64,000 nt of DNA from an uncultured virus (IMG/VR IMGVR_UViG_3300028173_000008) (taxonomy: Duplodnaviria > Heunggongvirae > Uroviricota > Caudoviricetes), in the IMG/VR virus record IMGVR_UViG_3300028173_000008. One strand, 5' to 3'. The position numbers and the translations under genes were made by a program. Below, piece after piece: positions 1,576-40,200 of this stretch (position 1 is its first letter; the number at the start of each line of letters is the position of its first letter). The notes below the pieces were generated by a model. The model had not been told where the DNA came from, ran no database searches, and worked only from the letters and a program-made list of their open reading frames with translations.

Positions 1576-1603
1576 GGCTTAGGCCCCTCCGGTTTCGGGT
1601 TGA
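1576..1603 (+). promoter_or_regulatory. phage bipartite promoter motif GGCTTAG-N14-GGGTTGA
   Basis: one of at least 15 intergenic copies with the same spacing. Confidence 0.7.
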
Positions 1604-1644
1604 GGGAAAGTAACGGGGAAAGTTCCCCGGCCTGAGAAAAACCC

Positions 1645-1673
1645 TTGACAGGGACCCAGGCTGCCGTTATTCC
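1645..1673 (+). promoter_or_regulatory. sigma70-type promoter of + tRNA operon
   Basis: TTGACA-17-TATTCC; context TGAGAAAA..CCTTGACAGG also found at the - operon. Confidence 0.6.
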
Positions 1674-1720
1674 TTTGAGCAAGTGCCGCCGAATGATCGG
1701 CGAGCGGAGGTTTTGGTTCC

Positions 1721-1879
1721 ATGTTGATCACGACGAAAAACGAACGCAGAAAGCGTCAAGCGCACGGGGCAACCCTGGCGTCGAAGCGCGACTCTCTGTT
1801 CGCAGCAGTCGTGAATCACCAGCCTGCCCCCGCCGCCATTGAGGGTTGTGATGACCCGATGGGGGCACCCGGCGAGTAA
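1721..1879 (+). CDS. 52-aa leader peptide (putative attenuator) MLITTKNERRKRQAHGATLASKRDSLFAAVVNHQPAPAAIEGCDDPMGAPGE
   Basis: GGAGG RBS, ATG 1721, TAA 1877-1879, terminator directly downstream. Confidence 0.75.
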   Translation: MLITTKNERRKRQAHGATLASKRDSLFAAVVNHQPAPAAIEGCDDPMGAPGE

Positions 1880-1903
1880 CCAAGCTCCATAAGTGGACTG
1901 GTG

Positions 1904-1938
1904 AAAGCCGGGTAACCGAAAGGTTCCCCGGCTTTTTT
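1904..1938 (+). terminator. intrinsic terminator (attenuator)
   Basis: AAGCCGGG-TAACC-GAAA-GGTT-CCCCGGCTT-TTTT. Confidence 0.85.
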
Positions 1939-1968
1939 GCTTCTTGGGCCTGAGTTGGAACGTAGGGC

Positions 1969-2014
1969 CTACCCGGTAGCACCGGGAGTTGCGGTCTTTG
2001 ACAACTGAATAGTA
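1969..2014 (+). promoter_or_regulatory. rrn-like boxB hairpin + boxA antitermination site
   Basis: hairpin CCCGGT-agc-ACCGGG then GGTCTTTGACAACTGAATAGTA. Confidence 0.75.
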
Positions 2015-2165
2015 CGTGAAAACGCACCAACGAGGGCAGGGCGGGTCTAGCCCACTCGTCCTGCCCTCATTTTCATAATGAACCCGTGCCCCGGTGGGCA
2101 CGGCCAATCCCCTAACGGGGCAAGGTCAAGCAGGCTCAACACCTGCCACGGGTTCCCATGTTCAT

Positions 2166-2242
2166 GGTGGACGTAGCTCAATAGGTAGAGCCCCGGGTTG
2201 TGATCCCGGTGGTTGCGGGTTCGAAGCCCGTCGTTCACCCCA
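2166..2242 (+). tRNA. tRNA-His(GTG)
   Basis: cloverleaf, G-1:C73, CCA. Confidence 0.9.
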
Positions 2243-2255
2243 TGAGAGGGGCTAA

Positions 2256-2337
2256 GGTCTGGTGTCCCGCACGGAGACGTGCAAAGGCAGCGTCGTCTAG
2301 GGTAGGCCACCCAACGATGACGGCGTTGTACTAGACC
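2256..2337 (+). ncRNA. unassigned structured RNA
   Basis: GGTCTGGT/ACTAGACC closing stem; 11-bp GCAGCGTCGTC/GACGGCGTTGT helix. Confidence 0.45.
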
Positions 2338-2410
2338 ACATTATTCCGGCGAAGCTCATCTGGTAGAGCGGGCGGTTGACAACCGAAGGGTCTTGCCTTA
2401 CTTTGAGGGC

Positions 2411-2821
2411 ATGAACAAGAGCCCTAAAACTATCGGCGAGCGCAGTGAAGGCATGGTGCTGGCAGCCCTCTTGAGGGCGGGCAAGGTTGTGTTGCAACCC
2501 TTCGGGGACAACCAACGGTACGACCTTGTGGTGGATGAGGATGGGAAATTCATCCGGGTCCAGTGCAAGACCGCCCGCTTGAAGAACGGCGCTTTGGCCT
2601 TCGATACATGCTCCTCTCAAACCCATCGGGGGAAGGGGAAGCAAGATTACAGGGGGCAAGCGGACTTGTTTGGGGTCTATTCTCCTGACAGGGACGCCGT
2701 GTACCTTGTACCCGTTGAGGATGTCGGGGTTACCCAAGCCCGACTCAGGCTGTCCAAACCTCGTAATGGCCAATCCAAAGGCGTCCGCTTTGCGGCGGAT
2801 TATCTTCTCGATCTGGGGTAG
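2411..2821 (+). CDS. PD-(D/E)XK endonuclease (I-Ssp6803I/PDDEXK_5-like)
   Basis: GERSE..V...L..PFGDNQRYDLVVD..RVQCKT..Y..ADLFGVY. Confidence 0.85.
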   Translation: MNKSPKTIGERSEGMVLAALLRAGKVVLQPFGDNQRYDLVVDEDGKFIRVQCKTARLKNGALAFDTCSSQTHRGKGKQDYRGQADLFGVYSPDRDAVYLVPVEDVGVTQARLRLSKPRNGQSKGVRFAADYLLDLG

Positions 2822-2884
2822 CTCAATAGGTAGAGCGCCGGTCTGTTAAATCGGTTGTTGAGGGTTCAAGTCCCTCCCCCAGAG
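2812..2884 (+). tRNA. tRNA-Asn(GTT), cassette cargo
   Basis: cloverleaf; ORF stop TAG = positions 8-10. Confidence 0.9.
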
Positions 2885-2931
2885 CTACAAGCTCCTCATG
2901 TTGTGGGTTCGAGTCCCACCGCCGGAGCTTG

Positions 2932-3431
2932 AAGGGCTGGCTGTTCCCTTTCGGGGGTTCAGTCTGTGACGGGCCGTATGGGGTCCGTAGGAAACATCGG
3001 AGCAATCCGGTGGAAGGGGAGTCCTTGTCACAGGCCCCCGCCAGTCACCTCTCGGGGTGGTTGGTCCGTCCATGCAAGCCGTAGGTAGCCCGGTCAGGGC
3101 GGGTCGTCCACCAAAGGCGGCTCTAGTCCCGAGTCTGGGGTTGGCCCCACCGACAGGTGGGTGAAGCATGGCCTGTCAGCGATGGCAGTCATGCGAAGGA
3201 TAGGCGGGGACGCCTTGAGCCAACCAATCCAACTGGACGAAGGAGGATTCCCAAGCGGCAGTCGGTCAGTTTGAGGGGTGGGAGCCCTGAAGGCGGTCGG
3301 CATGTAGAGGGGCGAAGGGTGAAATCCCCGGAGTCCTGAAGACAGGGTAAAGCCCGCCGGGGCGAATACCAGAGGACGTGTTGCATTCCCCTCCTCAAAA
3401 GGGAAGGGAACGACTGGCAGGGCACGCCCTT
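2932..3431 (+). ncRNA. large (~500 nt) structured non-coding RNA
   Basis: no credible ORF; AAGGGC/GCCCTT ends pair; UUCG/GNRA-type hairpins; flanked by tRNAs. Confidence 0.55.
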
Positions 3432-3437
3432 ATGACA

Positions 3438-3510
3438 TGCGAATTAGCTCAGTTGGTAGAGCGCATCCTTCGTAGGGATGAGGTCGTTGGTTCAAGTCCA
3501 ACCCTTGCAA
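3438..3510 (+). tRNA. tRNA-Thr(CGT), imperfect acceptor stem
   Basis: good D, anticodon and T arms; 2 acceptor mismatches. Confidence 0.6.
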
Positions 3511-3845
3511 ACAAAGGAAAGACCCTGCCGGTCTGTGTGGTAAGTGACCTAATCCCGTCCCCGCAAGGGAAGGCGGGCCGGTGAAGCCCCCAAGGTGGAG
3601 CCGGTTGGTGGGAAGCTGAAGCGTAGGGGCGGCCACCCCTGCCGGATGTGGAAAGCCGATGCAGCACAGGCGACGAGGGAAACGCCACCCTCCAACAAAG
3701 GCGGTCACGACTGGCTACCGGGGAGACCCGGTGGACACGGGGAGAACTTGGCGGGGGACCGTCAAGGTAATGCCCTGAGAGGCCGGTTATGAAAACGGGT
3801 AGTCTCACCGTTCCTCATTCTCCCCTCCCTTCGGGGCGGGGACTA
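3511..3845 (+). ncRNA. ~330 nt structured non-coding RNA
   Basis: CCCC-GCAA-GGGG, CCGGG-gaga-CCCGG, CCC-TTCG-GGG hairpins; between tRNAs. Confidence 0.45.
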
Positions 3846-3846
3846 T

Positions 3847-3923
3847 CGGAGAGTAGCGCAGCCTGGTAGCGCACCTGGTTCGGGACCAGGGGGTCGGGGG
3901 TTCGAATCCCCCCTCTCCGACCA
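3847..3923 (+). tRNA. tRNA-Pro(CGG)
   Basis: cloverleaf, CCA. Confidence 0.92.
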
Positions 3924-3955
3924 CGACAGAGACAGCCCGGAGAGACGGGCACCAT

Positions 3956-4029
3956 CGGGATGTGGCGCAGTCTGGCAGCGCACTTGGCTGGGGGCCAAGG
4001 GGCCGTCGGTTCGAATCCGACCATCCCGA
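3956..4029 (+). tRNA. tRNA-Pro(GGG)
   Basis: cloverleaf. Confidence 0.9.
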
Positions 4030-4037
4030 CTTTCAAT

Positions 4038-4108
4038 CCTGACCTAGCTCAATGGCAGAGCGCTCGGCTGTGGACCGGGAGATTCGGGTTCAACTCCCGG
4101 GGTTAGGA
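4038..4108 (+). tRNA. tRNA with GTG anticodon (atypical His, U-1:A73)
   Basis: cloverleaf CCTGACC/GGTTAGG. Confidence 0.7.
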
Positions 4109-4190
4109 CGGACAAGGGCTATGGGGTAGAGGCCGAAGTTGGACGAGGCACATTAGACTGGCTATACTCTCCTCATTAGTAGGAGGTAGC

Positions 4191-4811
4191 ATGTACAAGG
4201 AAGCCACGAAGCAAGAGGCCCTCCGCCTTCGCCAACAGCAGCGCCTTTCCCTTCGAGAGATCCAAGCCCAAACAGGGGTCTCTAAAGGAACCCTCTCCAA
4301 GTGGTTGCAGGGGATGCCGTTAGACAGGGAAGAGGTGCGGGCAAAACTCCGCCTCAATGGAACCAGCAAGGGACGAGCAAAAGCTGACCGGGTTGAATCT
4401 GCCTTACACCGCCGTTTCGGTGTTCCCATGAACAGCCACTACAAGGCTAAGATTGCAGAAGCAGCGATCCTTCTTCGGGCTGGCTTGTTGGGGGTGGATA
4501 CCTACCAGAGCCCCTTTGATGGAGACAAGGCCGACTGGGTGTTTGATGTGAAGGGACGCCTCCTTAAGGTGCAGGTGAAATGGGCGGCCACACCAGCCAA
4601 ACATGGGGCACCACAAGTGAAAGTACGATGTGCCGGGGGCCGTTCTGGACTCCGGTGCTACACGGAGGGGGAATTCGACATTCTTGTAGGATATGACCTT
4701 TACACCGACACTGCCTATGTGTGGACGTGGGATGAGGTGAAGGATTTCACCAGCACTGTTTCCTGTTGGGATGAAGCAGAGGAACGCTGGGACAAGATCA
4801 CGGTCTCATAG
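4191..4811 (+). CDS. HTH + PD-(D/E)XK endonuclease
   Basis: LSLREIQAQTGVSKGTLSKWL HTH; IAEAA..PFDGDKADW..KVQVK..Y.EGEFD. Confidence 0.85.
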   Translation: MYKEATKQEALRLRQQQRLSLREIQAQTGVSKGTLSKWLQGMPLDREEVRAKLRLNGTSKGRAKADRVESALHRRFGVPMNSHYKAKIAEAAILLRAGLLGVDTYQSPFDGDKADWVFDVKGRLLKVQVKWAATPAKHGAPQVKVRCAGGRSGLRCYTEGEFDILVGYDLYTDTAYVWTWDEVKDFTSTVSCWDEAEERWDKITVS

Positions 4812-4879
4812 GGGAGTCAGGAGTCCCCACCTGCCTGTCACGCAGGAGATCCCGGGTTCAAATCCCGGTGGGACCGCCA
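4802..4879 (+). tRNA. tRNA-Asp(GTC), cassette cargo
   Basis: cloverleaf, CCA; ORF stop TAG = positions 8-10. Confidence 0.9.
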
Positions 4880-5050
4880 GAGGAAGCGGGTTCGAGTCCC
4901 GTCTATCCCGCCAATCGCCGGGGGTGAAACCCGGAGGAACACAGTGGAAGCAGCAGGCTCCCCCTCGGGGGAGGCCGTGCAAGCGTAACTCCTGCCGTGG
5001 AAGCTGTGGAAAACCGGGCGAATCCCCACTTGGGACCTTGTGGACACGCA

Positions 5051-5138
5051 GGCTGGGTAGCTCCAATCGGCAGAGCGCTGGGCAACGCTTGCACGGCTTT
5101 GGGCCCAGAGGTAGGGGGTTCGAGTCCTTCCCTGGGTA
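5051..5138 (+). pseudogene. tRNA-like RNA with ~19-21 nt anticodon loop
   Basis: D and T arms intact, CTGGGC/GCCCAG stem, weak acceptor. Confidence 0.55.
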
Positions 5139-5179
5139 CACAAGAAGCGGGATGTCCAAGTTCCAACGGCGATTTTCAT

Positions 5180-5252
5180 GGGGGTGAGGTCTGCTGGGCG
5201 GACGCTGGCTTGTCAGGTCAGAACGGGGAGGGTTCGATTCCCTTCACTCCCG
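5180..5252 (+). tRNA. tRNA-Asp(GTC)
   Basis: cloverleaf. Confidence 0.75.
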
Positions 5253-5256
5253 CTTT

Positions 5257-5329
5257 GGGTCCGTAGTGTTAATGTAGCATCCCTGGCTCTTAACCAGGCG
5301 GGTGGCGGGTTCAAGTCCCCCCGGACTCA
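5257..5329 (+). tRNA. tRNA-Lys(CTT)
   Basis: cloverleaf, atypical D loop. Confidence 0.7.
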
Positions 5330-5344
5330 CTGAAGTGTTTTCAT

Positions 5345-5417
5345 CCCTCCGTGGCGCAATTGGTAGCGCAAACGGCTCTTAACCGTGAGGTTGAAGGTTC
5401 GATTCCTTCCGGGGGGA
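5345..5417 (+). tRNA. tRNA-Lys(CTT)
   Basis: cloverleaf. Confidence 0.88.
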
Positions 5418-5435
5418 CTAGCGTTTGTACTTTGT

Positions 5436-5512
5436 GACCCCGTCGTCTAGTTGGCTAGGACACCAGACTCTCAATCTGGAGATCGCCGGTTCAAACCCGG
5501 TCGGGGTTACCA
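5436..5512 (+). tRNA. tRNA-Glu(CTC)
   Basis: cloverleaf, CCA. Confidence 0.9.
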
Positions 5513-5513
5513 T

Positions 5514-5587
5514 CCTCCCGTAGCTCAGTAGGTAGAGCGGCGGCCCGATAAGCCGTGACAGCGAAGGTTCAATTCCTTTCGGGAGGA
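5514..5587 (+). tRNA. tRNA-Ile(GAT)
   Basis: cloverleaf (C33). Confidence 0.85.
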
Positions 5588-5614
5588 CTAGCAGAGGACT
5601 GTGGTGCTGGTTCA

Positions 5615-5687
5615 GCATAGATAGCTCAATTGGTTGAGCATCGGTCATTCAAACCGACGGTTACAGGTTCGATCCCTGTTCGTTTGC
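5615..5687 (+). pseudogene. degenerate tRNA (TTC loop)
   Basis: D, anticodon and T arms present; acceptor poorly paired; A33. Confidence 0.5.
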
Positions 5688-5721
5688 AACAGCCCGACAC
5701 CCGACCTTCCTCTGCTTCCCT

Positions 5722-5841
5722 CGAACAGTAGCTCAGTGTTGATGTACCCCCGCCAAGTTGCCGGTTGATGAAGCGGAAGGGCATCGATAGGGAGAGCGCC
5801 GGGACACTCGGAGGCCGCTGGTTCAAACCCAGCCTGTTCGA
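5722..5841 (+). ncRNA. tRNA-like RNA with ~53-nt D-loop hairpin insert and no anticodon loop
   Basis: CGAACAG/CTGTTCG acceptor, GCTC/GAGC D stem, CCGGG-ACA-CTCGG, GCTGG-TTCAAAC-CCAGC. Confidence 0.75.
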
Positions 5842-5845
5842 CTTT

Positions 5846-5917
5846 GCGGGCGTAGCTCAGTGGTAGAGCATCGGGTTGCCAATCCGAAGGTCGTGGGTTC
5901 GAATCCCATCGCCCGCT
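5846..5917 (+). tRNA. tRNA-Gly(GCC)
   Basis: cloverleaf. Confidence 0.92.
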
Positions 5918-5921
5918 CTAT

Positions 5922-5995
5922 GGTGTGGTCTTCTAATTGGCTAGGAAATCGGCCTTTCAAGCCGGGGAATGCGGGTTCGAATCCCGTCCACACTA
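5922..5995 (+). tRNA. tRNA-Glu(TTC)
   Basis: cloverleaf. Confidence 0.9.
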
Positions 5996-6168
5996 CAAGA
6001 AGTCCGGTAGCCACCGGACGCGGCCGGAGACACCCCCGGTCGTCAGTCAGGTTGGCATCTGACGAACAGGGTAGCCGATCCCCGGTAATGGGGCGTCGTC
6101 AGGGAGGCGAAAGTAGGGCAACCGAAGGACGGTCTGAAATACATCGTCCGGGTCTTACCCCTGATCAT

Positions 6169-6244
6169 GGGGCCTTAGCTCACTTGGGAGAGCGTCGGGA
6201 TGGCATTCCGAAGGTAGCGGGTTCGATCCCCGCAGGCTCCACCA
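6169..6244 (+). tRNA. tRNA-Ala(GGC)
   Basis: cloverleaf, G3:U70, CCA. Confidence 0.92.
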
Positions 6245-6273
6245 GGGCTTAGTTGCAGATCTATCTGCGTTGA

Positions 6274-6347
6274 TGGGGCGTCGTCCAAAGGCAGGACCCT
6301 GGGTTTTGGTCCCAGTGATGAGGGTTCGAATCCTTCCGCCTCAGCCA
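6274..6347 (+). tRNA. tRNA-Gln(TTG)
   Basis: cloverleaf, CCA. Confidence 0.9.
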
Positions 6348-6361
6348 TTCAAGGAGGTGTC

Positions 6362-7162
6362 ATGAGCAAGATAGTAAAAGGCACCTCCCGGAGCGGTGTA
6401 GGAACTACGTTGGTGGTTCCGCAGCACCGGCTGGTGTTCGACATGGGGGCTCCCCTGGTGGAGTCCTTGGGCGTCCGTAAGGTGTTCATCACCCACGGGC
6501 ACATGGATCACGCAGGGGCTCTGGTGTTCCACGCCAGCACACGGGGAATGATGGGAATGGGGCCGCCCCTGTTCCACGTCCCGGCCTGGATGGAAGCCGA
6601 CCTTCGGGTGATACTGAAGGCCGCCGCCCGCCTCAACGGTGGGGGAGTCCAGTTCGACATGGTCCCCATGGAAGCGGGCAAGAGTCACGATCTGGGAGGG
6701 CCTCGCAGAGTGGTGCCCTTCTACACCGACCACCGGCTACCGTGCCTCGGCTACAAGGTCTACCAGACCCGAAACAAGCTCCGGGATGAGTTCATAGGAC
6801 TTCCCGGAGAGGAGATCGGGCGGCTTCGGAAGGGTGGAACGGAAGTCACCCGTGAGGTAGAAGCCTTGGCACACACGCACGTAGGGGACAGCCGGGTGAC
6901 CGTGCTGGACAAACACCCCGAGGTGTTCCAGTCAGATGTGCTGGTGCTGGAGTGTACGTTCGTGGGCGACTACTCCTTGGAGGAGACCCACAGGCGGGGA
7001 CACACGCACCTGTCCGAACTGGCGGAACGTGCGGAACTGTTCAAGGACGTGAAGGCCGTTGTCCTGACACACTTCTCGATGCGACACAGCGAGAAGGAGG
7101 TCAAGGCGGAGGTCGCCAAGCTCCCCGAGTCCCTTCGGGACAAGATCCACCTCGTTTTCTAG
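6362..7162 (+). CDS. rnz: ribonuclease Z (MBL fold)
   Basis: FITHGHMDH, GDS, LECTF, RGHTH, LTHFSMRH, short exosite. Confidence 0.85.
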   Translation: MSKIVKGTSRSGVGTTLVVPQHRLVFDMGAPLVESLGVRKVFITHGHMDHAGALVFHASTRGMMGMGPPLFHVPAWMEADLRVILKAAARLNGGGVQFDMVPMEAGKSHDLGGPRRVVPFYTDHRLPCLGYKVYQTRNKLRDEFIGLPGEEIGRLRKGGTEVTREVEALAHTHVGDSRVTVLDKHPEVFQSDVLVLECTFVGDYSLEETHRRGHTHLSELAERAELFKDVKAVVLTHFSMRHSEKEVKAEVAKLPESLRDKIHLVF

Positions 7163-7246
7163 CCCCCTCTCGGGGGCATCATTGGGGCATAGCTCAATTG
7201 GTAGAGTACCGTTGAACTTTGTGCGCTTTACCCTTACACTAGAAGC

Positions 7247-7828
7247 ATGGGACGAAAGAGCCACATCTGGGACACACCCCCGGAACGCTTCCGCCAACTG
7301 GTACACACCCACACCACATGGAAAGGGCTCGCATTAGCCCTTGGGATGTCGATCTGTGGGGGGACATTCAAGACCATCCGTAAAAGGATCCAGCAAGATG
7401 GGTTGGACGATCATCATTTGCGAGAGGGGGCCTCAAAACGAGGTGGCCTTTTGGCCGCTAAGAAACAGGAGCAGCCCCTTTCAGAGATCATGGTGAAAGA
7501 TTCTTCCTACTCACGGTACCACCTAAAGGCCCGTCTACTGCGAGACAGGGTGTTGGAAAACAAGTGTGCCATGTGCGGTCTCGATCCTGTTTGGGAAGGA
7601 GATCCCCTCGTGATGGTTCTTGACCACATAAACGGGGAACCCCAAGACCACCGGGCAGGGAATCTGAGGTTGGTCTGCCCCAACTGCAACTCACAGCTTC
7701 CAACCTTTGCAGGTCGGAAAACGAAAAAGGGCGAGGTTCTTTGTGTGGACTGCGGGACACCCATCCACACAAGAAGTACCAGATGTCGTTCATGTAGCGG
7801 CAGGCATCGTTATTTTACTGGGGAGTAA
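7247..7828 (+). CDS. HNH endonuclease
   Basis: CAMCG..LDHING..D.R..NLRLVCPNCNSQ. Confidence 0.9.
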   Translation: MGRKSHIWDTPPERFRQLVHTHTTWKGLALALGMSICGGTFKTIRKRIQQDGLDDHHLREGASKRGGLLAAKKQEQPLSEIMVKDSSYSRYHLKARLLRDRVLENKCAMCGLDPVWEGDPLVMVLDHINGEPQDHRAGNLRLVCPNCNSQLPTFAGRKTKKGEVLCVDCGTPIHTRSTRCRSCSGRHRYFTGE

Positions 7829-7891
7829 CTCAACTGGCAGAGTGCCGTCCTCTGAAGGCGGATGTTGTGGGTTCGAGTCCCACCTCCCCAG
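7819..7891 (+). tRNA. tRNA-Gln(CTG), cassette cargo
   Basis: cloverleaf; ORF stop TAA = positions 8-10. Confidence 0.9.
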
Positions 7892-7962
7892 CCCATAGGT
7901 TGAAGGTTCAAGTCCTTCTGCCCCAGCTATGGCGGGACGCACAGGCAGTGCAGGCCGTCTAA

Positions 7963-8035
7963 CGCAGTGTAGCTCAACAGGTAGAGCGCTGGTCTCATAA
8001 GCCGGAGGTTCCCGGTTCAATTCCGGGCACTGCGA
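7963..8035 (+). tRNA. tRNA-Met(CAT)
   Basis: cloverleaf. Confidence 0.85.
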
Positions 8036-8050
8036 CTACAGCGGTACTAG

Positions 8051-8124
8051 GGCGACGTAGCCAAGTTGGTTAAAGCACTGGTCTGCAAAACCAGAGATCC
8101 CCGGTTCGAATCCGGGCGTCGCCT
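8051..8124 (+). tRNA. tRNA-Cys(GCA)
   Basis: cloverleaf, U73. Confidence 0.9.
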
Positions 8125-8197
8125 CTTTTCGGACGGTAGCTCAGTGGTAGAGCTTCGGTAGCTCTCCTATCAGGAGTCTCATGGTAGGAGGTGGGCT

Positions 8198-8545
8198 GTG
8201 ACAACCATCGTGAAATGTGAGCAGTGCGGCAGGGAGTACGTCCCGGACAGGAAAAAGGGACACCGTGGAACCCTTTGCAACTCTTGTGTGGTCAACACCA
8301 GGAGAGCAAGCGTAAAGGAAAAGGCAGTCTCCTACAAAGGAGGGGCGTGCGCCATCTGCGGTTACGACCGGTGTGCGAGAGCCTTGGGGTTCCACCATAA
8401 GGACCCTGCCAAGAAGGATTTTCCTCTTGGGGCCAACTACACGAGGTCGTGGGACAAACTGAAGGTGGAGTTGGATAAGTGCATCCTCCTCTGCGCCAAC
8501 TGTCACGCTGAAGTTCATGATGGGATGGTTGAACTCGGGGGGTAG
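8198..8545 (+). CDS. HNH endonuclease
   Basis: YKGGACAICGY..ALGFHHKDP..ELDKCILLCANCHAEVH. Confidence 0.9.
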   Translation: MTTIVKCEQCGREYVPDRKKGHRGTLCNSCVVNTRRASVKEKAVSYKGGACAICGYDRCARALGFHHKDPAKKDFPLGANYTRSWDKLKVELDKCILLCANCHAEVHDGMVELGG

Positions 8546-8608
8546 CTCAGTGGCTAGAGCGAACGGCTGATAACCGTTAGGGCGAGGGTTCGAGTCCCTC
8601 TCTCCCGA
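8536..8608 (+). tRNA. tRNA-Ile(GAT), cassette cargo
   Basis: cloverleaf; ORF stop TAG = positions 8-10. Confidence 0.9.
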
Positions 8609-8752
8609 CTTTTACTACCGTGGGGCCGGAGGTTCGAATCCTCCTCGTCCGACCAGTAGGGAAAGGTGGCGGTCTGAGAGCCTGCCGGGTTCTGCAAGGC
8701 CCAATGGTTCAACGTCTGTTGCAGCAGGCCCCGTGCGCCGCCCTGCGTTCAT

Positions 8753-8822
8753 GCCCTCGCCCGTGGATCGGGGCTTTGGTCTTCTAAACCGGAGGTCGAG
8801 GGTTCGATTCCTTCCGGGGGCG
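8753..8822 (+). tRNA. tRNA-Arg(TCT), shortened D arm
   Basis: acceptor, anticodon and T arms canonical. Confidence 0.7.
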
Positions 8823-8881
8823 CTAGTTTGTCTATGGGCAGGGGATGGTAGAGTGGATCGACTCCACGAGGAGATACCGTC

Positions 8882-10054
8882 ATGGGCTACAACGTCCCCG
8901 AACCTTACGCCTCGCTCCTTGCCACGTACCCCGACGTAGCGAACGTCAAGTACGTGTCCCCACCGGATGCTAACCATCTGGAGGGAACGGGGGACGGCTC
9001 ATTGGTCAACCCGTACAGGGGCATCCAGACGGCCATCGATGCTTTTCCGCCCACAGAGATGCCTCCGCCTGACCCGGCGGACATGGGCCCAGAGGATCTG
9101 GTCAACCTGTTCCGGTTCATCGTCGTCAATTCGGGTGTGTACGACGAGAGCCCCATTATCACAGAGGCAGGGCTCTGGTCCTTTCAATCAGCAGGGCAGG
9201 TCCTGCTGATCTCCCCTGTGGCTTTCGCTTACCTGTGGGATCCTGAGCACGAGCCGCCCCCGTCCATTGACGACATGCGGTTCTTCCACCTGAACCCGGA
9301 TGAAACCAAGCTTGACGCTTGGGGCATGTTCATCTTGGACATTCAGCCCCTCTACGGTGCCCCGAAAGACAAGATGATCGGCGGCATCGGCAGGAACGGC
9401 AGCACCGGGGGTCTGCAGATGTGGACCCTTATGGGCGGGATCGTCTACGAGGTGGAAGCACCCCTCGGTGGCTGGACGCACACCCCGTCGCCGTCCATTA
9501 GCTTGAAAGATGTCTACGGCCTGGTACTCGTCCCTGGAGAGAACGGGGATTGGGAAGCCGACATCAACATCGACTGTGACCGAGTCTCGTTCAACTACTT
9601 CGAAGTCCTGGGGCTGGAGAAGTACGACGTCGAGATCCTCAACTCCGCCTTCAGTGGCCTTGAGCAGTACTCTGGACCTGGTGCCCCTATCTACACGCAG
9701 ACCTGCCGGTTCTGGGCCAGCAACTGCAACATCACGGGCGACGTGTTCGTGGCAGACGCCGACATCGTGTTCGACCACGTTTCCATGAGCGGTGGAGACC
9801 TGATTTTCAGGACCTACTGGTCCATCCTGGACTGCAACCTGGACGTCAACGAGTGGGAACACACACAGTCCCCGTCGGGATCGGTCATCATCAACACCTA
9901 CTTCGACGTGAACTCGTGGGGTGCGGCCCTTCCCCTGAACGCCCTGAACGTCTGCGCCACCACCTGTGCGATGAGCAGTTCGGCCCTGTCCAGCTTGCCC
10001 GTCCCACATAGCAACTACGCATCAGTCACGAACAGCGTCGTGATCCCCCCGTAA
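8882..10054 (+). CDS. acidic hypothetical protein (possibly beta-helix/virion)
   Basis: 390-aa ORF with GGAG RBS; GDGSLVNPY..IQ.AIDA motif. Confidence 0.7.
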   Translation: MGYNVPEPYASLLATYPDVANVKYVSPPDANHLEGTGDGSLVNPYRGIQTAIDAFPPTEMPPPDPADMGPEDLVNLFRFIVVNSGVYDESPIITEAGLWSFQSAGQVLLISPVAFAYLWDPEHEPPPSIDDMRFFHLNPDETKLDAWGMFILDIQPLYGAPKDKMIGGIGRNGSTGGLQMWTLMGGIVYEVEAPLGGWTHTPSPSISLKDVYGLVLVPGENGDWEADINIDCDRVSFNYFEVLGLEKYDVEILNSAFSGLEQYSGPGAPIYTQTCRFWASNCNITGDVFVADADIVFDHVSMSGGDLIFRTYWSILDCNLDVNEWEHTQSPSGSVIINTYFDVNSWGAALPLNALNVCATTCAMSSSALSSLPVPHSNYASVTNSVVIPP

Positions 10055-10057
10055 CCT

Positions 10058-10130
10058 GCCCCAGTAGCTCAGTGGATAGAGCATCGGTCTCCTAAACCGA
10101 GGGCCGCAGGTTCGATTCCTGCTTGGGGCA
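10058..10130 (+). tRNA. tRNA-Arg(CCT)
   Basis: cloverleaf. Confidence 0.92.
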
Positions 10131-10164
10131 CTCCCTTCAACAGCACCGCAACAAGGAGAACACC

Positions 10165-10218
10165 ATGGTACTTCGTCTCAAACAGCCGCCGACCCCCATT
10201 CGTTTACTGGGCCGGTAG
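10165..10218 (+). CDS. 17-aa mini-ORF MVLRLKQPPTPIRLLGR ending inside tRNA-Lys
   Basis: AAGGAG RBS; TAG = tRNA positions 8-10. Confidence 0.45.
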   Translation: MVLRLKQPPTPIRLLGR

Positions 10219-10284
10219 CTCAACTGGATAGTCAGCAAGCGGCTTTTAACCGCTAGGTTCCGGGTTCAAGTCCCGGTCGGCCCA
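10209..10284 (+). tRNA. tRNA-Lys(TTT)
   Basis: cloverleaf. Confidence 0.88.
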
Positions 10285-10289
10285 CTATT

Positions 10290-10363
10290 GCGGACGTAGC
10301 CAAGAGGTAAGGCATCGGGCTTCCACCCCGTGAGCGCCGGTTCGATTCCGGTCGTCCGCTCCA
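10290..10363 (+). tRNA. tRNA-Gly(TCC)
   Basis: cloverleaf, CCA. Confidence 0.9.
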
Positions 10364-10404
10364 CCAACAGGGCTTAGGTAGTTCCTCTATTGCGTAGACA
10401 CCCA

Positions 10405-10772
10405 TGGGTAGGATGTCAGCCTCGGTGAAGCTGGGTACGCAGTGGAGGGGCACAAAACGACGCCTGCACCGCCCGTGAGATAGGCCCAAACGGGGAACCG
10501 TCAACCGGGGAGGGGGTGGAAGTCCTCTTGACCCGCCCGGAAGGGTCCTGCGTTGAGCCGTCATCTTGAGGGCGGCCTTGAAGGGCAGCGTAGGTACACC
10601 CCCTGAAGGACGCCCTTTGGCTGGTGCTTGGACTGGCCCCTGTGGATGAGGGTTTGTATCAACCAAGCTGGAAGCGGAGTACTCGTCCCCATTGTTGAAT
10701 CCCACCTTCGGGTGCGGTACTGGACGAGCCGGAAGTACCCCATGGCACGGCGTACTTCCGGCTGTGGGCGTG
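10405..10772 (+). ncRNA. ~370 nt structured non-coding RNA
   Basis: directly after a GGCTTAG promoter; 12-bp AGCCGGAAGTAC/GTACTTCCGGCT helix; no credible ORF. Confidence 0.5.
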
Positions 10773-10773
10773 A

Positions 10774-10845
10774 GGGCGTATAACTCAGCGGAAGAGTGCC
10801 GTCTTGACAAGGCGGAAGTCCCTGGTTCAATCCCAGGTACGCCCA
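10774..10845 (+). tRNA. tRNA-Val(GAC)
   Basis: cloverleaf. Confidence 0.9.
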
Positions 10846-10862
10846 CTGAATCGGAGGGCTAG

Positions 10863-11048
10863 GTGACGAACAAGGACAAGTGGTTCGCAACCTGTATGGT
10901 GTTGATGCTTGTGACAGGCTTCGGTCTTGTGGGGCTTGGCCTCGACTCAACGCTGGCATCGATCTTTGAGGTGGCCGCAGCCGCCATCTGGCTCTTTGGA
11001 GTTCCGAAAGTCAGCCGTAGAGCACACCAGTACATCTACGGCAGGTAG
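10863..11048 (+). CDS. small membrane protein
   Basis: GGAGG RBS, two hydrophobic segments. Confidence 0.6.
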   Translation: MTNKDKWFATCMVLMLVTGFGLVGLGLDSTLASIFEVAAAAIWLFGVPKVSRRAHQYIYGR

Positions 11049-11054
11049 TTTTGG

Positions 11055-11126
11055 CGCGGGGTAGGGAAGTGGCATCCTCCTTGGCTCATAACCAAGGGAT
11101 CGGCGGTTCAAGTCCGCCCCCCGCAA
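11055..11126 (+). tRNA. tRNA-fMet(CAT)
   Basis: CGCGGGG start, C1:A72 mismatch. Confidence 0.8.
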
Positions 11127-11273
11127 CCTCTCGGGCAATCTGACTCGGCCCGTAAGCCCGCCCCACGTCCCCGTCAGGGTGACGAGCACCCGAAAGGGTA
11201 GGGCAACAGGAGCAGACCGTGGGAAGACGCTTTGTACAGCGTCGGAATGCGTCCCGGAGGGACGCCCCACCGT

Positions 11274-11345
11274 GCGGGTGTAGTTCAGGGGTAGAACGTC
11301 AGCTTCCCAAGCTGGATGTCGTGGGTTCGAATCCCATCACCCGCT
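11274..11345 (+). tRNA. tRNA-Gly(CCC)
   Basis: cloverleaf. Confidence 0.92.
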
Positions 11346-11349
11346 CTAT

Positions 11350-11422
11350 GGGGCCTTAGCTCACTTGGGAGAGCGCCGCTTTTGCAAGGCGGAGGTAGCC
11401 GGTTCGATCCCGGCAGGCTCCA
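11350..11422 (+). tRNA. tRNA-Ala(TGC)
   Basis: cloverleaf, G3:U70. Confidence 0.92.
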
Positions 11423-11425
11423 CTA

Positions 11426-11480
11426 TGGGGAGGGCGGGGTGGTCAGGCCCGAAAGGGAGCAGCCATCCTGACCCTACCCA
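11426..11480 (+). ncRNA. ffs: minimal SRP (4.5S) RNA, helix 8 domain
   Basis: GGTCAGGCCC-GAAA-GGGAGCAGCC matches helix-8 GGUCAGGUCCGGAAGGAAGCAGCC; closed by TGGG..CCCA. Confidence 0.85.
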
Positions 11481-11534
11481 CCAGGCTTAGCCTCCCGTTC
11501 ACCTGTGTTGAAGAGGTGGACGACGGAGGACGAC

Positions 11535-11981
11535 ATGAGCGTTACATTTTGGTGCCCCGAAGCTCCCCGAGAGGCCATCGAGACCCCTTGCTGGGGCGAG
11601 TGCGACGAAACCTGCCCCATGTGTCACGGCACCAACGTGACCACGGAACAGGTCAGCCCGCACGAGATGAACCTCGCCAACGCCAACGCCTACAACATCC
11701 TCCTCGCCTTGGGTGTCCAGAGTGACGAATCCATGTGCGGCGGGTGGGAGACCCCCGAGGACATCCGCACCATCAGGGCGGCGATCCTCAAGGCCCGCAA
11801 CGTGACAGGCCGCAGGGAAGGGGCACACCGAGACGCCGAATCCTACGGCGGGCCGGGAACTGGAACCTGCCGGGTCGTTTCGCAGGGCTACACCGACGAG
11901 CAGGTACTCGACCGGCTGACCCGGTTGGACAAGCTCCTCGCCTACGCTTTGGAGAACAGTCACCGGGTGGTTTGGGGATGA
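11535..11981 (+). CDS. hypothetical protein (Zn ribbon)
   Basis: GGAGG RBS, CxxC motifs. Confidence 0.7.
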   Translation: MSVTFWCPEAPREAIETPCWGECDETCPMCHGTNVTTEQVSPHEMNLANANAYNILLALGVQSDESMCGGWETPEDIRTIRAAILKARNVTGRREGAHRDAESYGGPGTGTCRVVSQGYTDEQVLDRLTRLDKLLAYALENSHRVVWG

Positions 11982-12556
11982 GTGCTCACCGTGAGCGTGT
12001 GAAAATGCTCAAGCGGGTCAACGCCCACCAGCAAGTCAACGACCCCTTCTGGTTGTCCGGCTACACCGACGGAAGCCACCATCCCGACACAGGGAAGGGC
12101 GGCGTGGGCCTGTGGGTACGGGACAACGAGACCCGAATCCTCAAGGCTATACCGACCCCTCCGTGGGCTGTGAACTCCAACCTCGTGGAACTGTTCGGGG
12201 TCTGCGCCGCCATTGAGACGGCCCTGACGGAACTCACACAGGAAGCCAACATCCTCGTCATCAAGACGGACAGCCAGAGCACGGCCAACTGGTTCGGCTG
12301 GCAGGGCAACAAGTCCGTACCGAAGCAGCCTGAAGCCCTCGAGATGATGCAGCACGTCCTAGAGCTTGCCACCGACCGCCGAGTGAAGGTGGTCGTCAAG
12401 TGGGTGAAGGGACACCAAGGCACGGGCAGCGTCGTGGGCTACTTGAACAACCGGGTCGACAAGATGGCCCGTGATGCACGACTGAAAGGTGTACCCTCTC
12501 GCTGGTCCTGCCGGGTCAACGAGGAACGCAAGCAAGGGCCTGTAGCTCAACGGTAG
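11978..12556 (+). CDS. rnhA: ribonuclease HI
   Basis: YTDGS, NSNLVEL, KTDSQ, KWVKGH, NNRVDKMA. Confidence 0.85.
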   Translation: MSAHRERVKMLKRVNAHQQVNDPFWLSGYTDGSHHPDTGKGGVGLWVRDNETRILKAIPTPPWAVNSNLVELFGVCAAIETALTELTQEANILVIKTDSQSTANWFGWQGNKSVPKQPEALEMMQHVLELATDRRVKVVVKWVKGHQGTGSVVGYLNNRVDKMARDARLKGVPSRWSCRVNEERKQGPVAQR

Positions 12557-12608
12557 AGCCTCCCGCTCATAACGGGACGGTCGACGGGTTCGACTCCCTC
12601 CGGGCCCA
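12536..12608 (+). tRNA. tRNA(CAT), probably Ile2
   Basis: GGGCCTG acceptor typical of Ile2; overlaps rnhA end. Confidence 0.75.
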
Positions 12609-12658
12609 CTAGCCCCTAAACAGCAAGCAGCAGGGTAGGATAAGGCAGGAGGTGCCTC

Positions 12659-12898
12659 ATGCCGGATCTACCCTACGTGATGCTCACTGGACTCATCCTC
12701 ATGCTGGTCGGTGTTCCCCTCTGGATGTACCGCTCAGAGAAGAAGAAGGTGGAGGCCGGGTGTTGCGGGAAGCCGTGGATCTCCTACTGCCGTGACTCAC
12801 AGGGCGGCATCGGCTTGAACTGTCAGGAGTGCGACAACGGCACTTGGGTATCCTACTACCGCAAGGGCTTCGTTGAGGGCGAACAGCAACCATTCTAG
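12659..12898 (+). CDS. small membrane-anchored protein
   Basis: GGAGG RBS, N-terminal TM. Confidence 0.6.
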   Translation: MPDLPYVMLTGLILMLVGVPLWMYRSEKKKVEAGCCGKPWISYCRDSQGGIGLNCQECDNGTWVSYYRKGFVEGEQQPF

Positions 12899-12968
12899 GC
12901 TCGTAGCTCAGTGGGAGAGCGCCTGCTTCACACGCAGGAAGTCCCCGGTTCAAAACCGGGCGGGCCTA
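12897..12968 (+). tRNA. tRNA-Val(CAC)
   Basis: cloverleaf. Confidence 0.9.
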
Positions 12969-12986
12969 CTTTGAAGGAGGGCTAAC

Positions 12987-13514
12987 ATGGAAAGCACACG
13001 CAGAGGGTTCCTTGCAGGAGCCGCTGGAGTCACAGGTTGGCTCCTGTTCGGCAAGGGTGCCGAAGCCGCAGCGAAGGCCGAGGGCAACCGTGTCCTGCGG
13101 GAGTTCGATGAGGACGTTGAGGGGTTTCCGCATCACGTCATCGAGATGCAGTTGACCTACGACAACCCGATGCTCCAGTTCGACGTGCCACTGCCGGACT
13201 CGGACTTCGATGGCCTACAGATCAGCATCCCAAGGCGTCAGACGGTGGGCCGCCACACGGCGACGGAGCTTGTGGACTACCACAAGCGGAGCCAACCCGA
13301 CGGTGACATCTGGGGGATCATCCGCCAGCGTGTACCCCAGATGGCACAGGCGAGGGTGAAGAATCCCGCCTACGGCGACCACAAGATGCACATCGCCACG
13401 GTGGTGTGCCACTGCCCGAGCGGGATCGAGGTGGGCATGACGGTGTTGCCCGTAGGCGTGACCGTCGAGGACATGCACCTGACCATCCCGGCAACGCTGT
13501 TGCCGCAGTCCTGA
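12987..13514 (+). CDS. hypothetical protein with Tat-like signal
   Basis: STRRGFLAG. Confidence 0.7.
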   Translation: MESTRRGFLAGAAGVTGWLLFGKGAEAAAKAEGNRVLREFDEDVEGFPHHVIEMQLTYDNPMLQFDVPLPDSDFDGLQISIPRRQTVGRHTATELVDYHKRSQPDGDIWGIIRQRVPQMAQARVKNPAYGDHKMHIATVVCHCPSGIEVGMTVLPVGVTVEDMHLTIPATLLPQS

Positions 13515-13532
13515 CAACGCACAAGGCTCCAA

Positions 13533-13608
13533 GGGCGAGTAGCGCAGTGGAAGTAGCACCGGCTTTACAAGCCGTAGGTCGTGGGTTCAATCCCCACCTC
13601 GCCCACCA
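13533..13608 (+). tRNA. tRNA-Val(TAC)
   Basis: cloverleaf, CCA. Confidence 0.85.
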
Positions 13609-13647
13609 TTCAGGCTTAGCCGGACGCCCGTCCGTGTAGAGAACCTC

Positions 13648-13953
13648 ATGAAGCAGGAAACCCAAGAGTGCCCCCTGTGCCACCGTGACTGCCCACAGGC
13701 GATCATGACGGAGCACCACTTGAAGACCCGCAGGGTGGACAAGGACGACACGGCGATGCTGTGCCGGGAGTGCCACAAGACGGTACACGGGCTCTTTGAC
13801 AACAAGGAACTACGGGACTCGTCCAGAGGGCTGGACACGGTCGAGGGGCTGCTTGCAGACCCCTTGATCCGAAAGGCCCTCTCCCACATCAGGAAGCTCC
13901 CGCCCGGTCAGTTCATGCGGATGTATCGGGCCGGACGCCGCAAGAAGCGCTAG
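13648..13953 (+). CDS. small HNH-like protein
   Basis: CPLCHR..TEHHL..LCRECHKTVH. Confidence 0.75.
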   Translation: MKQETQECPLCHRDCPQAIMTEHHLKTRRVDKDDTAMLCRECHKTVHGLFDNKELRDSSRGLDTVEGLLADPLIRKALSHIRKLPPGQFMRMYRAGRRKKR

Positions 13954-13969
13954 ACACCAATCCAAACAT

Positions 13970-14043
13970 GCCCCGGTAGCTCAGTGGATTAGAGCACACC
14001 CCTGCGGAGGGTGGGGTCGGAGGTTCGAATCCTCTCCGGGGTA
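13970..14043 (+). tRNA. tRNA-Arg(GCG)
   Basis: cloverleaf. Confidence 0.88.
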
Positions 14044-14103
14044 CTTGTGCGCCCGTAGCTTTATGGTTTCTCCTCCGGTATTATCCGGGCAACAGGAGGA
14101 ACC

Positions 14104-14616
14104 ATGCCAACCTGCAAGAAATGTGGTGTCTCATTCCCCAACAGGATAACGGTTGAGGGGGGCAGGCGAAACATCTCCAGACGGAAATTCTGCCTGACAT
14201 GTTCCCCTTGGGGGTCTCGAAACCGAAAAGACCTGAGTGCCCCCTCGATTACCAGCGGAGTGAAAACCTGCCCTCGGTGTGGGGACGTGAAGGAACTCAC
14301 TGAGTTCTACACCAGACGGAGAGGTAAGGAGTCCGAGCCTTCCTCCTACTGTAAGGCATGCGCCGCAGAGGAAGCACGGGGACGTATGCGGGCATTGAAA
14401 GCCCGTTGCGTTGAGTACAAGGGAGGCGGGTGCCGGGTTTGTGGGTACTCGAAAAGCCTCGCTGCGTTGGATTTCCATCACAGGGATCCCAAGGAGAAAG
14501 GTTACGGGATTTCGCAGATCCGAGGTTGGAAATTCGAACGGGTAAAGGAAGAATTAGATAAATGTGACCTTCTGTGTCGGAATTGCCACTCAGAGGTTCA
14601 TGACGAGGCCCTGTAA
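14104..14616 (+). CDS. HNH endonuclease
   Basis: YKGGGCRVCGY..ALDFHHRDP..ELDKCDLLCRNCHSEVH. Confidence 0.9.
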   Translation: MPTCKKCGVSFPNRITVEGGRRNISRRKFCLTCSPWGSRNRKDLSAPSITSGVKTCPRCGDVKELTEFYTRRRGKESEPSSYCKACAAEEARGRMRALKARCVEYKGGGCRVCGYSKSLAALDFHHRDPKEKGYGISQIRGWKFERVKEELDKCDLLCRNCHSEVHDEAL

Positions 14617-14679
14617 CCCAGTGGATAGGGTGCCTGACTTCGAATCAGGTTGTCGCAGGTTCGAGTCCTGCCAGGGCCA
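14607..14679 (+). tRNA. tRNA-Arg(TCG), cassette cargo
   Basis: cloverleaf; ORF stop TAA = positions 8-10. Confidence 0.9.
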
Positions 14680-14716
14680 TCAGGTTGGGAGTTCGAATCT
14701 CCCCGGGCGTTCTTTT

Positions 14717-14793
14717 CAGGGGGTAGCTCAGTCTGGCAGAGTCCCGGCCTTGGACGCCGGTTGTCGCGGGTTCGAATCCCGCCTCCCTGACCA
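14717..14793 (+). tRNA. tRNA-Pro(TGG)
   Basis: cloverleaf, CCA. Confidence 0.92.
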
Positions 14794-14893
14794 GCCGTAG
14801 GAAAAGCGTTGATCACGTATTGTTCAGATAGGAGTATGAGGGGGAGTGCCATGACCGGCATGTCGTAATCAACAACCCTCCGAGGAGGCGGAG

Positions 14894-37664: not shown

Positions 37665-37784
37665 AAGTTTTCAAAGAACAGCGTGTCCTTCTATACCATC
37701 AACCCAATAGAAGGATCCTCTAAGCCTACTTCGTGTAGGTGCATGGCGTAGGCTCACGGGGTAGAGTGGATGAGGAGGACGCAC

Positions 37785-39373: not shown

Positions 39374-39697
39374 ATGTCCAAGTTCACCGTCGACTGTTTC
39401 ACCGAGAAGTCACTCCCGGAGCCGGGGTTCCCTGAGAACACCTACGAGGCGGCCACCGTGCTGGAGGCTGCGGCTGTTGTCCATAACTGCACCCGCAAGC
39501 AGGCCGGGATCAGGATGGTTCAGATCTGGATCGAAGAGCCGGACGACCGAGAGGCCGTCGACACGCTCAAGACGTGCCGGTGTGGGACGAAGGGATGCGA
39601 TACAAAGCGCATTGACCCTGACGAGGTAGCGAAGGCGCTGGGGGCGGAGAAGGCCGTGAAGCCGAAGAACCTGCCCCGCAGGCCGGGGACACGGTAG
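39374..39697 (+). CDS. hypothetical protein
   Basis: GGAGG RBS. Confidence 0.6.
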   Translation: MSKFTVDCFTEKSLPEPGFPENTYEAATVLEAAAVVHNCTRKQAGIRMVQIWIEEPDDREAVDTLKTCRCGTKGCDTKRIDPDEVAKALGAEKAVKPKNLPRRPGTR

Positions 39698-39784
39698 GCG
39701 GAAGCGGAGGGAGTCGAACCCTCAAGGCCGTAAAGCTCGCCTGTTTTCAAGACAGGTGCCGTCGCCACGTCGGCTGGCGCTTCC
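39697..39784 (-). tRNA. tRNA-Ser(TGA)
   Basis: cloverleaf, long variable arm. Confidence 0.9.
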
Positions 39785-39806
39785 AAGTTGAACAGTAGGT
39801 CTTCGT

Positions 39807-39897
39807 TGGCGGAAGGAGGGGGAGTCGAACCCCCAAGGCGCTCATCACGCTCGACCACTTTCCAAGCGGCTGCCATCACCAATTGGCTTGCCCTTCC
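39807..39897 (-). tRNA. tRNA-Ser(GGA)
   Basis: cloverleaf, CCA. Confidence 0.9.
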
Positions 39898-39901
39898 AAA
39901 G

Positions 39902-39988
39902 TGCGACCGGAGGGATTCGAACCCTCACGCCAGTCATTGTTGACACTGGCCCCTCAAGCCAGCGCGTCTACCATTCCGCCACGGTCGC
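39902..39988 (-). tRNA. tRNA-Leu(GAG)
   Basis: cloverleaf. Confidence 0.9.
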
Positions 39989-39993
39989 ATGAG

Positions 39994-40075
39994 TGCTGCC
40001 GGTGGGACTCGAACCCACACACCTCAAGGGCACGGGCCTCTCAGACCCGCATGTCTACCATTCCATCACGACAGC
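39994..40075 (-). tRNA. tRNA-Leu(GAG)
   Basis: cloverleaf. Confidence 0.88.
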
Positions 40076-40078
40076 ATA

Positions 40079-40200
40079 GAAAGCACCCCAGCACGTAGGG
40101 AACCACGGGTTGGTTACCGCTGGCCGCCCACTCCTCCCAGAAGTGCTGCTTCTCTGTGGTCTTGGACACCCCTGATCTACAGCCCCGGCTGGGGTGCCTT
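40079..40200 (-). ncRNA. unassigned ~120 nt hairpin RNA
   Basis: GGCACCCCAGC/GCTGGGGTGCT closing stem. Confidence 0.45.

Follow-up and report, generated by a model that had tools for sequence, protein, structure and literature searches.

The two tRNA arrays of this phage are probably controlled by attenuators that sense tRNA shortage and feed transcripts resembling rRNA precursors. Each array is headed by a codon-matched leader ORF, a predicted terminator and a boxA, and the phage therefore likely makes more of a set of tRNAs when that set is short. In a fuller form of this reading, the two operons split the genetic code between them, each with its own codon-resolved gauge in which the leader samples almost all tRNAs that its operon provides, and are then transcribed and processed by the host rRNA machinery; this form stands at about even chances. 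The window analysed here comprises bases 1-64000 of a 75,956-base virus record, which is estimated to be 14% complete. It contains 51 tRNA genes and one tmRNA gene. An earlier note on this DNA had described the same order of control elements at 1576-2014 (+) and 44582-44247 (-), and every part that it listed was found in order at both sites (Table 1).

Table 1. Coordinates of the two tRNA arrays and of the elements proposed to control them.
Feature	Position	Strand	Remarks
Array A	2167..14793	+	34 tRNA genes, GOLLD RNA, interspersed ORFs
GGCTTAG-N14-GNGT(A/T)GA promoter-like motif, array A	1576..1603	+	Motif conservation; putative promoter
Sigma70-type promoter candidate, array A	1645..1673	+	TTGACA, 17 nt, weak -10; like element in G001
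Shine-Dalgarno-like GGAGG	1706..1710	+	10 nt upstream of leader A start; by sequence
Leader ORF A	1721..1879	+	52 codons, 36 distinct; homologous ORF in G001
Antiterminator 5' arm A, predicted	1867..1873	+	Last codons of leader A; pairs with 1907-1913
Intrinsic terminator A, predicted	1905..1938	+	Hairpin of -20.1 kcal/mol, 6 T
boxA 22-mer, array A	1993..2014	+	Identical to bacterial rrn spacer/leader sequence
5' arm, predicted long-range helix A	2004..2025	+	20 pairs with 14806-14827, -29.3 kcal/mol
15-bp hairpin with T-rich tail after boxA A	2032..2068	+	Hairpins at the same position in G001 and L302
3' arm, predicted long-range helix A	14806..14827	+	13 nt beyond last tRNA
Array B	39697..44202	-	17 tRNA genes, 19 at relaxed threshold
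GGCTTAG-N14 promoter-like motif, array B	44555..44582	-	Motif conservation
Sigma70-type promoter candidate, array B	44484..44512	-	TTGACA, 17 nt, TAGCGT; TTGACA kept in L302
Shine-Dalgarno-like AGGAG	44468..44472	-	8 nt upstream of leader B start; by sequence
Leader ORF B	44361..44459	-	32 codons, 27 distinct; homologous ORF in L302
Intrinsic terminator B, predicted	44305..44338	-	Hairpin of -22.9 kcal/mol, 5 T; 5' arm can pair with leader B end
boxA 22-mer, array B	44247..44268	-	Exact rrn matches
5' arm, predicted long-range helix B	44239..44256	-	18/18 pairs with 39788-39805, -29.7 kcal/mol
14-bp hairpin with T-rich tail	44209..44240	-	Directly before first tRNA of array B; L302 hairpin there has no T run
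3' arm, predicted long-range helix B	39788..39805	-	Between last two tRNA-Ser genes
Third, shorter unit	37665..37726	-	GGCTTAG motif and boxA-like sequence directly before tmRNA gene; no leader ORF

The amino acids are divided between the two arrays. Array A carries tRNAs for His, Asn, Thr, Pro, Asp, Lys, Glu, Ile, Gly, Ala, Gln, Met, Cys, Arg and Val, and array B carries tRNAs for Leu, Ser, Thr, Phe, Tyr and Trp together with Arg-CCG. ACG is the only codon read by both. The genes downstream of the leaders are tRNAs, GOLLD and nucleases, with no amino-acid biosynthesis or synthetase operon among them. ATG-started ORFs of at least 100 aa cover 52% of array A and 45% of array B (an upper bound), so that the multi-kilobase RNA, which had been described as largely untranslated, was overstated in this respect.

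Each leader ORF is spelled in the codons of the tRNAs of its own array. The match is strong in leader B and modest in leader A. Leader B is rich in Leu, Ser, Thr, Phe, Tyr and Trp, and it has CGG, the sole Arg codon read by array B. Twenty of its 31 codons are read by array B tRNAs (background 0.28; binomial P 2.6e-5), and it uses 13 of the 15 array B anticodons (maximum in gene windows, 11). Each of these two scores was matched by 0 of 9383 same-length windows from 26 phage ORFs. Base composition does not account for leader B, because both measures were equalled in only 2 of 20000 dinucleotide shuffles and the other two frames of the region gave 6 and 8 of 30. Leader A contains all 15 amino acids of array A and lacks Tyr and Trp. 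Array A tRNAs read 42 of its 51 codons (background 0.72; P 0.057 against phage genes), and its use of 23 of the 28 array A anticodons was equalled by 28 of 8863 gene windows; both measures were equalled in 278 of 20000 dinucleotide shuffles. Leader A has 40 A-only and 7 B-only codons, and leader B has 9 and 17, respectively (Fisher P 1.9e-5). Against Rfam, neither leader gave a match near the gathering score to a T-box or other cis-regulator. By folding, leader ORF and terminator have the geometry of an attenuator at both arrays, as the earlier note had proposed; that note assigned the attenuators no signal and missed the codon match of the leaders.

The tRNA-Leu gene at 43723-43807 (-) in array B has the anticodon CAA and shares its anticodon arm with the Leu gene at 42341. 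At the 43723 site, where this contig has its second Leu-CAA, Leu-TAA is found in three near-identical assemblies (L298-L300). That Leu-TAA would serve the single TTA codon of leader B, the one Leu codon left unserved. The second Leu-CAA may be the product of assembly collapse or gene conversion.

The leaders were also compared with those of other phages. G001 is syntenic with this phage at 28-62% protein identity (its neighbouring NadD is 38% identical) and keeps leader A. The leader ORF and its ribosome-binding motif are kept both in G001 and in L302, which was found through a neighbouring protein. In G001, Arg-CCG lies in the A-type array and the leader of that array has a CGG codon, which leader A of this phage lacks; Glu-CTC lies in the other block, and the A-type leader has no GAG. 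The B-type array of L302 also holds Cys and two Glu tRNAs, and its 28-codon leader has two Cys and three Glu codons. In this leader 21 of 27 residues are served by the array (P 1.5e-5), a value reached by 0 of 3530 windows. The unrelated G004, found through boxA alone, has four sub-arrays with a matching leader each, serving 10/16, 20/28, 21/26 and 21/33 residues by hand counts without a background; the leader matches in G001, G002 and G003 are likewise hand counts. How widespread is this arrangement? A tRNA lies downstream within the flank at 18 of 116 viral loci with an 18-nt boxA core, and four of the 18 are this phage. Sixteen tRNA-near loci were inspected: three are this phage, four have such a leader and nine have none within the flank. 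The remaining 98 of the 116 loci (L001-L116) have no tRNA within the downstream flank and no rRNA motif. Two of five arrays in family relatives showed no such leader by eye. A terminator-based pattern search for relatives returned 33 loci, with tRNAs only in G005 and G001, and NadD-based searches found no relative beyond these two.

Both leader terminators of the earlier note fold as a hairpin with a T run, but neither is on the list of a simple consensus scanner. The pairing predicted for antiterminator A was equalled by 5 of 5000 shuffles and by 4 of 10844 genome windows. G001 keeps this helix, with one A-U pair replaced by G-C (a compensatory change). The duplex energy of antiterminator B was equalled by 1426 of 5000 shuffles and is not above chance. 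The switch was modelled with the ribosome footprint as unpaired bases and the 3' arm of the terminator withheld; transcription starts were assumed from the promoter candidates. In this footprint model, the terminator arm in A and in G001 is held at 0.99, falling to 0.67 in A and 0.48 in G001 once the ribosome comes close to the stop codon. In the same model leader B would act as a four-segment attenuator of the classical kind: without a ribosome the arm is held at 0.28, with a ribosome early or midway at 0.71 and 0.70, and with a ribosome at the stop codon at 0.03. In L302 the modelled shift is only from 0.87 to 0.50. A protector (1:2) hairpin is predicted in B, as reflected in its value without a ribosome, and none is predicted in A, G001 or L302. 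Without this hairpin, A and G001 would read through in the absence of any ribosome, with the modelled value at 0.99. Under full-equilibrium folding, the terminator forms at 0.94-1.0 at all ribosome positions but two (0.60 and 0.80). Equilibrium folding was uninformative as a test of the switch; because it nearly always favours the terminator, the switch would have to be kinetic, with an outcome that depends on timing.

Two types of promoter candidate precede each leader. The GGCTTAG sequence occurs in 16 copies in the window against 4.5 expected. It represents a real two-part motif, because G, G and T stand at +21, +23 and +24 in 17 of 17 copies of the whole contig. Four further motifs lie inside array A, at 6246, 10371, 11484 and 13613, and array B has no internal one. 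As putative promoters, these internal motifs could feed distal array A regardless of the leader. G001 (L118-L122) has a variant, GGATCAT-N14-GAGTAGA, in four copies with the same spacing, one of them before its array, and the variant first half hints at a sigma factor with altered -35 specificity. For a phage-coded sigma factor as the possible reader of GGCTTAG, Sigma70_r2 gave no match in this 14%-complete contig, in G001 or in G005 (all fragments), and two phage sigma factors were found in the unrelated G002. The sigma70-type promoters had also been proposed earlier. A perfect TTGACA is present at both sites, but the -10 boxes are weak, with 3 of 6 consensus bases and, in A, no final T, and a consensus scanner called neither candidate. 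GGGCCT sits where the proposed order places it at both sites, but it looks incidental and was rejected as an element of the layout: the contig has 110 copies, and G001 and L302 lack it at the corresponding place. A third CCTTGACAGG promoter candidate, at 58995-59025 (-), has a better -10 box and precedes a 541-aa ORF of no Pfam family. Directly 5' of leader A lie a cytidylyltransferase (NadD-like) gene and an NrtR-like regulator, as in G001.

The 22-mer is an rrn boxA by its sequence match to bacteria at large, and it may not be that of the host. The two near-identical 22-mers reported earlier are the only two in the window at up to three mismatches, and 0 of 100 shuffles gave a match. Among 91 metagenome contigs that match either 22-mer exactly, 85 have it 71-157 nt before 23S (83) or 16S (2), which upholds the earlier assignment to rrn-type boxA, although the boxA of the host itself may differ. 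The other six are four matches to the arrays of this phage, one contig cut short and one of something else. For the 18-nt core in genomes, 61 of 123 among the matches listed lie in rrn leaders or spacers by motif, 3 lie in tRNA clusters and 59 have no assignment, some being cut by contig ends. In the bacterial assemblies L179, L199 and L256, the core heads or sits in tRNA clusters, which may be integrated elements. Five bacterial rrn operons, picked for close matches, have the boxA motif at both leader and spacer. Among the matches listed, the closest boxA sequences come from records whose titles read uncultured delta proteobacterium or proteobacterium. At each phage site a hairpin stands before boxA (boxB position), and the two have no sequence in common. 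The hairpins that follow boxA were considered as second terminators: the scanner flags both, but the L302 counterpart has no T run. The TTGACA inside boxA was considered as a -35 box and rejected, as no -10 box was seen by eye 17 nt downstream at either site.

Folding predicts a helix between the bases after each boxA and the far end of the same array, as in rRNA precursors; the earlier note had missed this pairing. The partners of helices A and B are each the best of 7592 windows on their own strand, and cross-array pairing of the arms is poor (-11.5 and -13.7 kcal/mol versus about -29). The helix does not include the first 11 to 12 bases of the 22-mer. It begins with the 3' half of the 22-mer, so that part of the conservation of this sequence would be explained without Nus factors. 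The 3' arm of helix B has 12 nt in common with the flank behind the 23S gene of the bacterial genome G008. At three of the five other phage sites, in G001, G003 and G004, the boxA extension differs in sequence and yet has a partner beyond the array. Two of the seven boxA sites tested (G002 and L302) gave no long-range partner, and no convincing partner helix was found within 850 nt for the boxA-like sequence before the tmRNA gene. For the leader extension, the best pairing site lies behind 16S in all five bacterial operons; the spacer extension has its best match in the region behind 23S in three, its second best in one and none in one. In rRNA, such leader/spacer-trailer stems are sites of RNase III.

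How could these parts work together? The proposed mechanism starts from two arrays that divide the amino acids and from leaders that each follow their own array. The prediction is that the final codons of the leader, when no ribosome covers them, pair with the 5' arm of the terminator. A ribosome keeping pace would reach the leader end, upon which the terminator would form and transcription would stop. A ribosome delayed at a sampled codon, its tRNA being cut, uncharged or scarce, would instead let the polymerase read on. The terminator precedes boxA, so that boxA could act only on polymerase that has read through. The recruitment of NusB/NusE by boxA and the blocking of Rho are established for E. 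coli (PMC13753749 and PMC12360218). By analogy with rrn biology, the phage boxA would load host NusB/NusE and shield the multi-kilobase transcript from Rho. The pairing of the post-boxA bases with the far end of the array would then likely provide a processing stem of the RNase III type. As new tRNAs became available, the leader would be translated faster and the array would close again, which would constitute a feedback loop on tRNA supply.

Other explanations were weighed against this mechanism. Could the leaders be general translation-speed sensors, such that the arrays open upon slow translation of whatever cause and the codon match is a by-product or serves tuning only? Switch A, with no protector hairpin, is predicted to read through whenever its last codons are free of ribosomes. 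In G002, L317 and L320, where the arrays are mixed, the leaders draw on 20, 20 and 18 amino acids, and the Anabaena trn operon was found to be induced by general translational stress (PMC8421152). A general sensor needs no codon split between two leaders, yet the split is present at the Fisher P given above. Nor does it need a leader to change when tRNA genes switch arrays, yet this is seen in G001 and L302. A general sensor is considered unlikely. It is quite unlikely that the attenuators work but that the boxA-like sequence owes its conservation solely to its place at the start of a processing stem, with no Nus complex formed. The position of the 3' half of the 22-mer within the predicted helix, likewise found in bacterial rrn operons, would fit such a role, as would possible protection by ribosomes on the ORFs, which occupy about half of each array. 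Furthermore, boxA can promote Rho termination in some contexts (PMC12360218). Yet the bases that precede the helix match rrn boxA exactly in both arrays, and a boxA-like core for which no partner was found stands before the tmRNA gene and in L302. A similar boxA sequence of B. subtilis has also been shown to bind NusB (PMC13753749).

It was also considered that the terminators are fixed dampers or the ends of short RNAs, that the ORFs are chance frames and that the arrays are transcribed mainly from internal or upstream promoters. The near-constant terminator under equilibrium folding, the weak -10 boxes of the sigma70-type candidates and the putative internal GGCTTAG promoters of array A are all in line with this. 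No RNA contig among those listed, from four runs of one marine study, covers the leader ORFs. However, ORF, ribosome-binding motif and rival pairing are kept in place in L302 and in G001 despite the divergence of its NadD, array B lacks an internal GGCTTAG motif, and the codon statistics of leader B speak against chance frames. This account is regarded as very unlikely. Attenuators that respond to tRNA shortage remain the preferred reading.

The RNA contigs of the same marine study indicate presence in RNA libraries only and cannot show transcript starts, ends or strand. They match the phage over about 2950-3810 with few differences, and in one run the stretch 1982-2262 is represented by two contigs of low depth. 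An Rfam match to GOLLD at 3371-3811 (+) encloses a tRNA-Thr gene at 3438-3510. In the GOLLD region at 2950-3811 (+), RNA contigs of 848 and 882 nt begin near 2950-2970, which suggests a longer RNA. Also within array A, a Small SRP RNA-like match at 11412-11499 (+) scored 33.6 bits against a cut-off of 40. Sequences shaped like tRNAs with enlarged arms or inserts, uncalled by ARAGORN at its default threshold, lie at 5051-5138 (+), 5722-5842 (+) and 40370-40523 (-). Accessory protein genes near or in the arrays (51-1532, 6362-7162, 26095-27507, 42589-43080 and 45620-47188) include those for the NrtR-like regulator, a metallo-beta-lactamase-fold protein, an RtcB ligase, a QueF-like protein and GroEL.

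New here are the complementary pair of leaders in one genome and the leader content that follows tRNA genes moving between arrays. If the codon-resolved gauge is true, the loss of any one tRNA, for example to a host anticodon nuclease, would open the matching operon only, and leaders would evolve together with array content as tRNA genes pass from one operon to the other. The A/B pair would provide a built-in specificity control, and leader codons would also predict which tRNAs a phage monitors. It has long been argued whether the tRNA genes of large phages compensate for codon usage or refill a pool depleted by the host (PMC10264068). A tRNA-shortage sensor would favour refilling. The borrowing of boxA together with an rRNA-type closing helix would go beyond the rRNA, CRISPR and suhB contexts described in the sources considered. 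No report of leader-peptide control or of a boxA framing of phage tRNA arrays was found in a search that lay largely outside subscription journals.

The phage arrangement would work like a multivalent leader-peptide attenuator joined to an rrn leader. The phage leaders resemble such attenuators in combining a short ORF with a ribosome-binding motif, biased codons and a predicted intrinsic terminator; rival hairpins are predicted as well, although the duplex in B is not above chance. The leader-peptide transcription attenuators of thr, ilvGMEDA and pheST have codons biased to the sensed species. Unlike in thr, ilvGMEDA, trp, his and pheST, the controlled genes here are tRNA genes rather than enzymes and lie in a phage; the phage leaders are thus not strict members of the amino-acid operon attenuators (trp, his, thr, ilv). 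Classical attenuators use runs of codons, whereas the phage leaders sample 7 to 15 amino acids with one or two codons each. Switch A differs further in having no predicted protector hairpin. The hisL leader has been described as sensing charged tRNA-His (PMC12360218).

A parallel is found among stress-induced bacterial tRNA L-arrays in the Anabaena trn operon, a long and mobile array that impaired translation switches on (PMC8421152 and PMC10272220). Its control by the repressor protein TrcR is unlike that proposed for the phage arrays (PMC8421152), and the words attenuat-, terminator and boxA are absent from the main text of PMC8421152. Phage tRNAs are described as offsetting host defences that cut tRNAs, including PARIS, retron Ec78/Eco7, PrrC and VapC (PMC10264068, PMC11464382 and PMC11555353). 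The portions of these three studies considered here treat the tRNAs and not a sensor gating tRNA transcription. This body of work suggests the refilling of a depleted tRNA pool as the likely purpose of the phage arrays (PMC10264068).

With rrn operons the phage arrays share an identical 22-mer, there before 16S or 23S, and an extension predicted to pair with the trailer. The antitermination complex of rrn operons comprises NusA, NusB, NusE/S10, NusG, SuhB and S4. Unlike in rrn operons, no rRNA lies between the arms of the phage helices, which enclose tRNA, ncRNA and protein genes over 12.8 and 4.5 kb, and the phage boxA stands behind an attenuator with two upstream promoters of different types. 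The lambda nut site is likewise a phage RNA with a boxA that recruits host Nus factors (PMC12360218). In lambda, boxA is combined with boxB and the N protein. The hairpins after the phage boxA are long and dissimilar to each other, and the sequence here copies the rrn boxA together with its helix.
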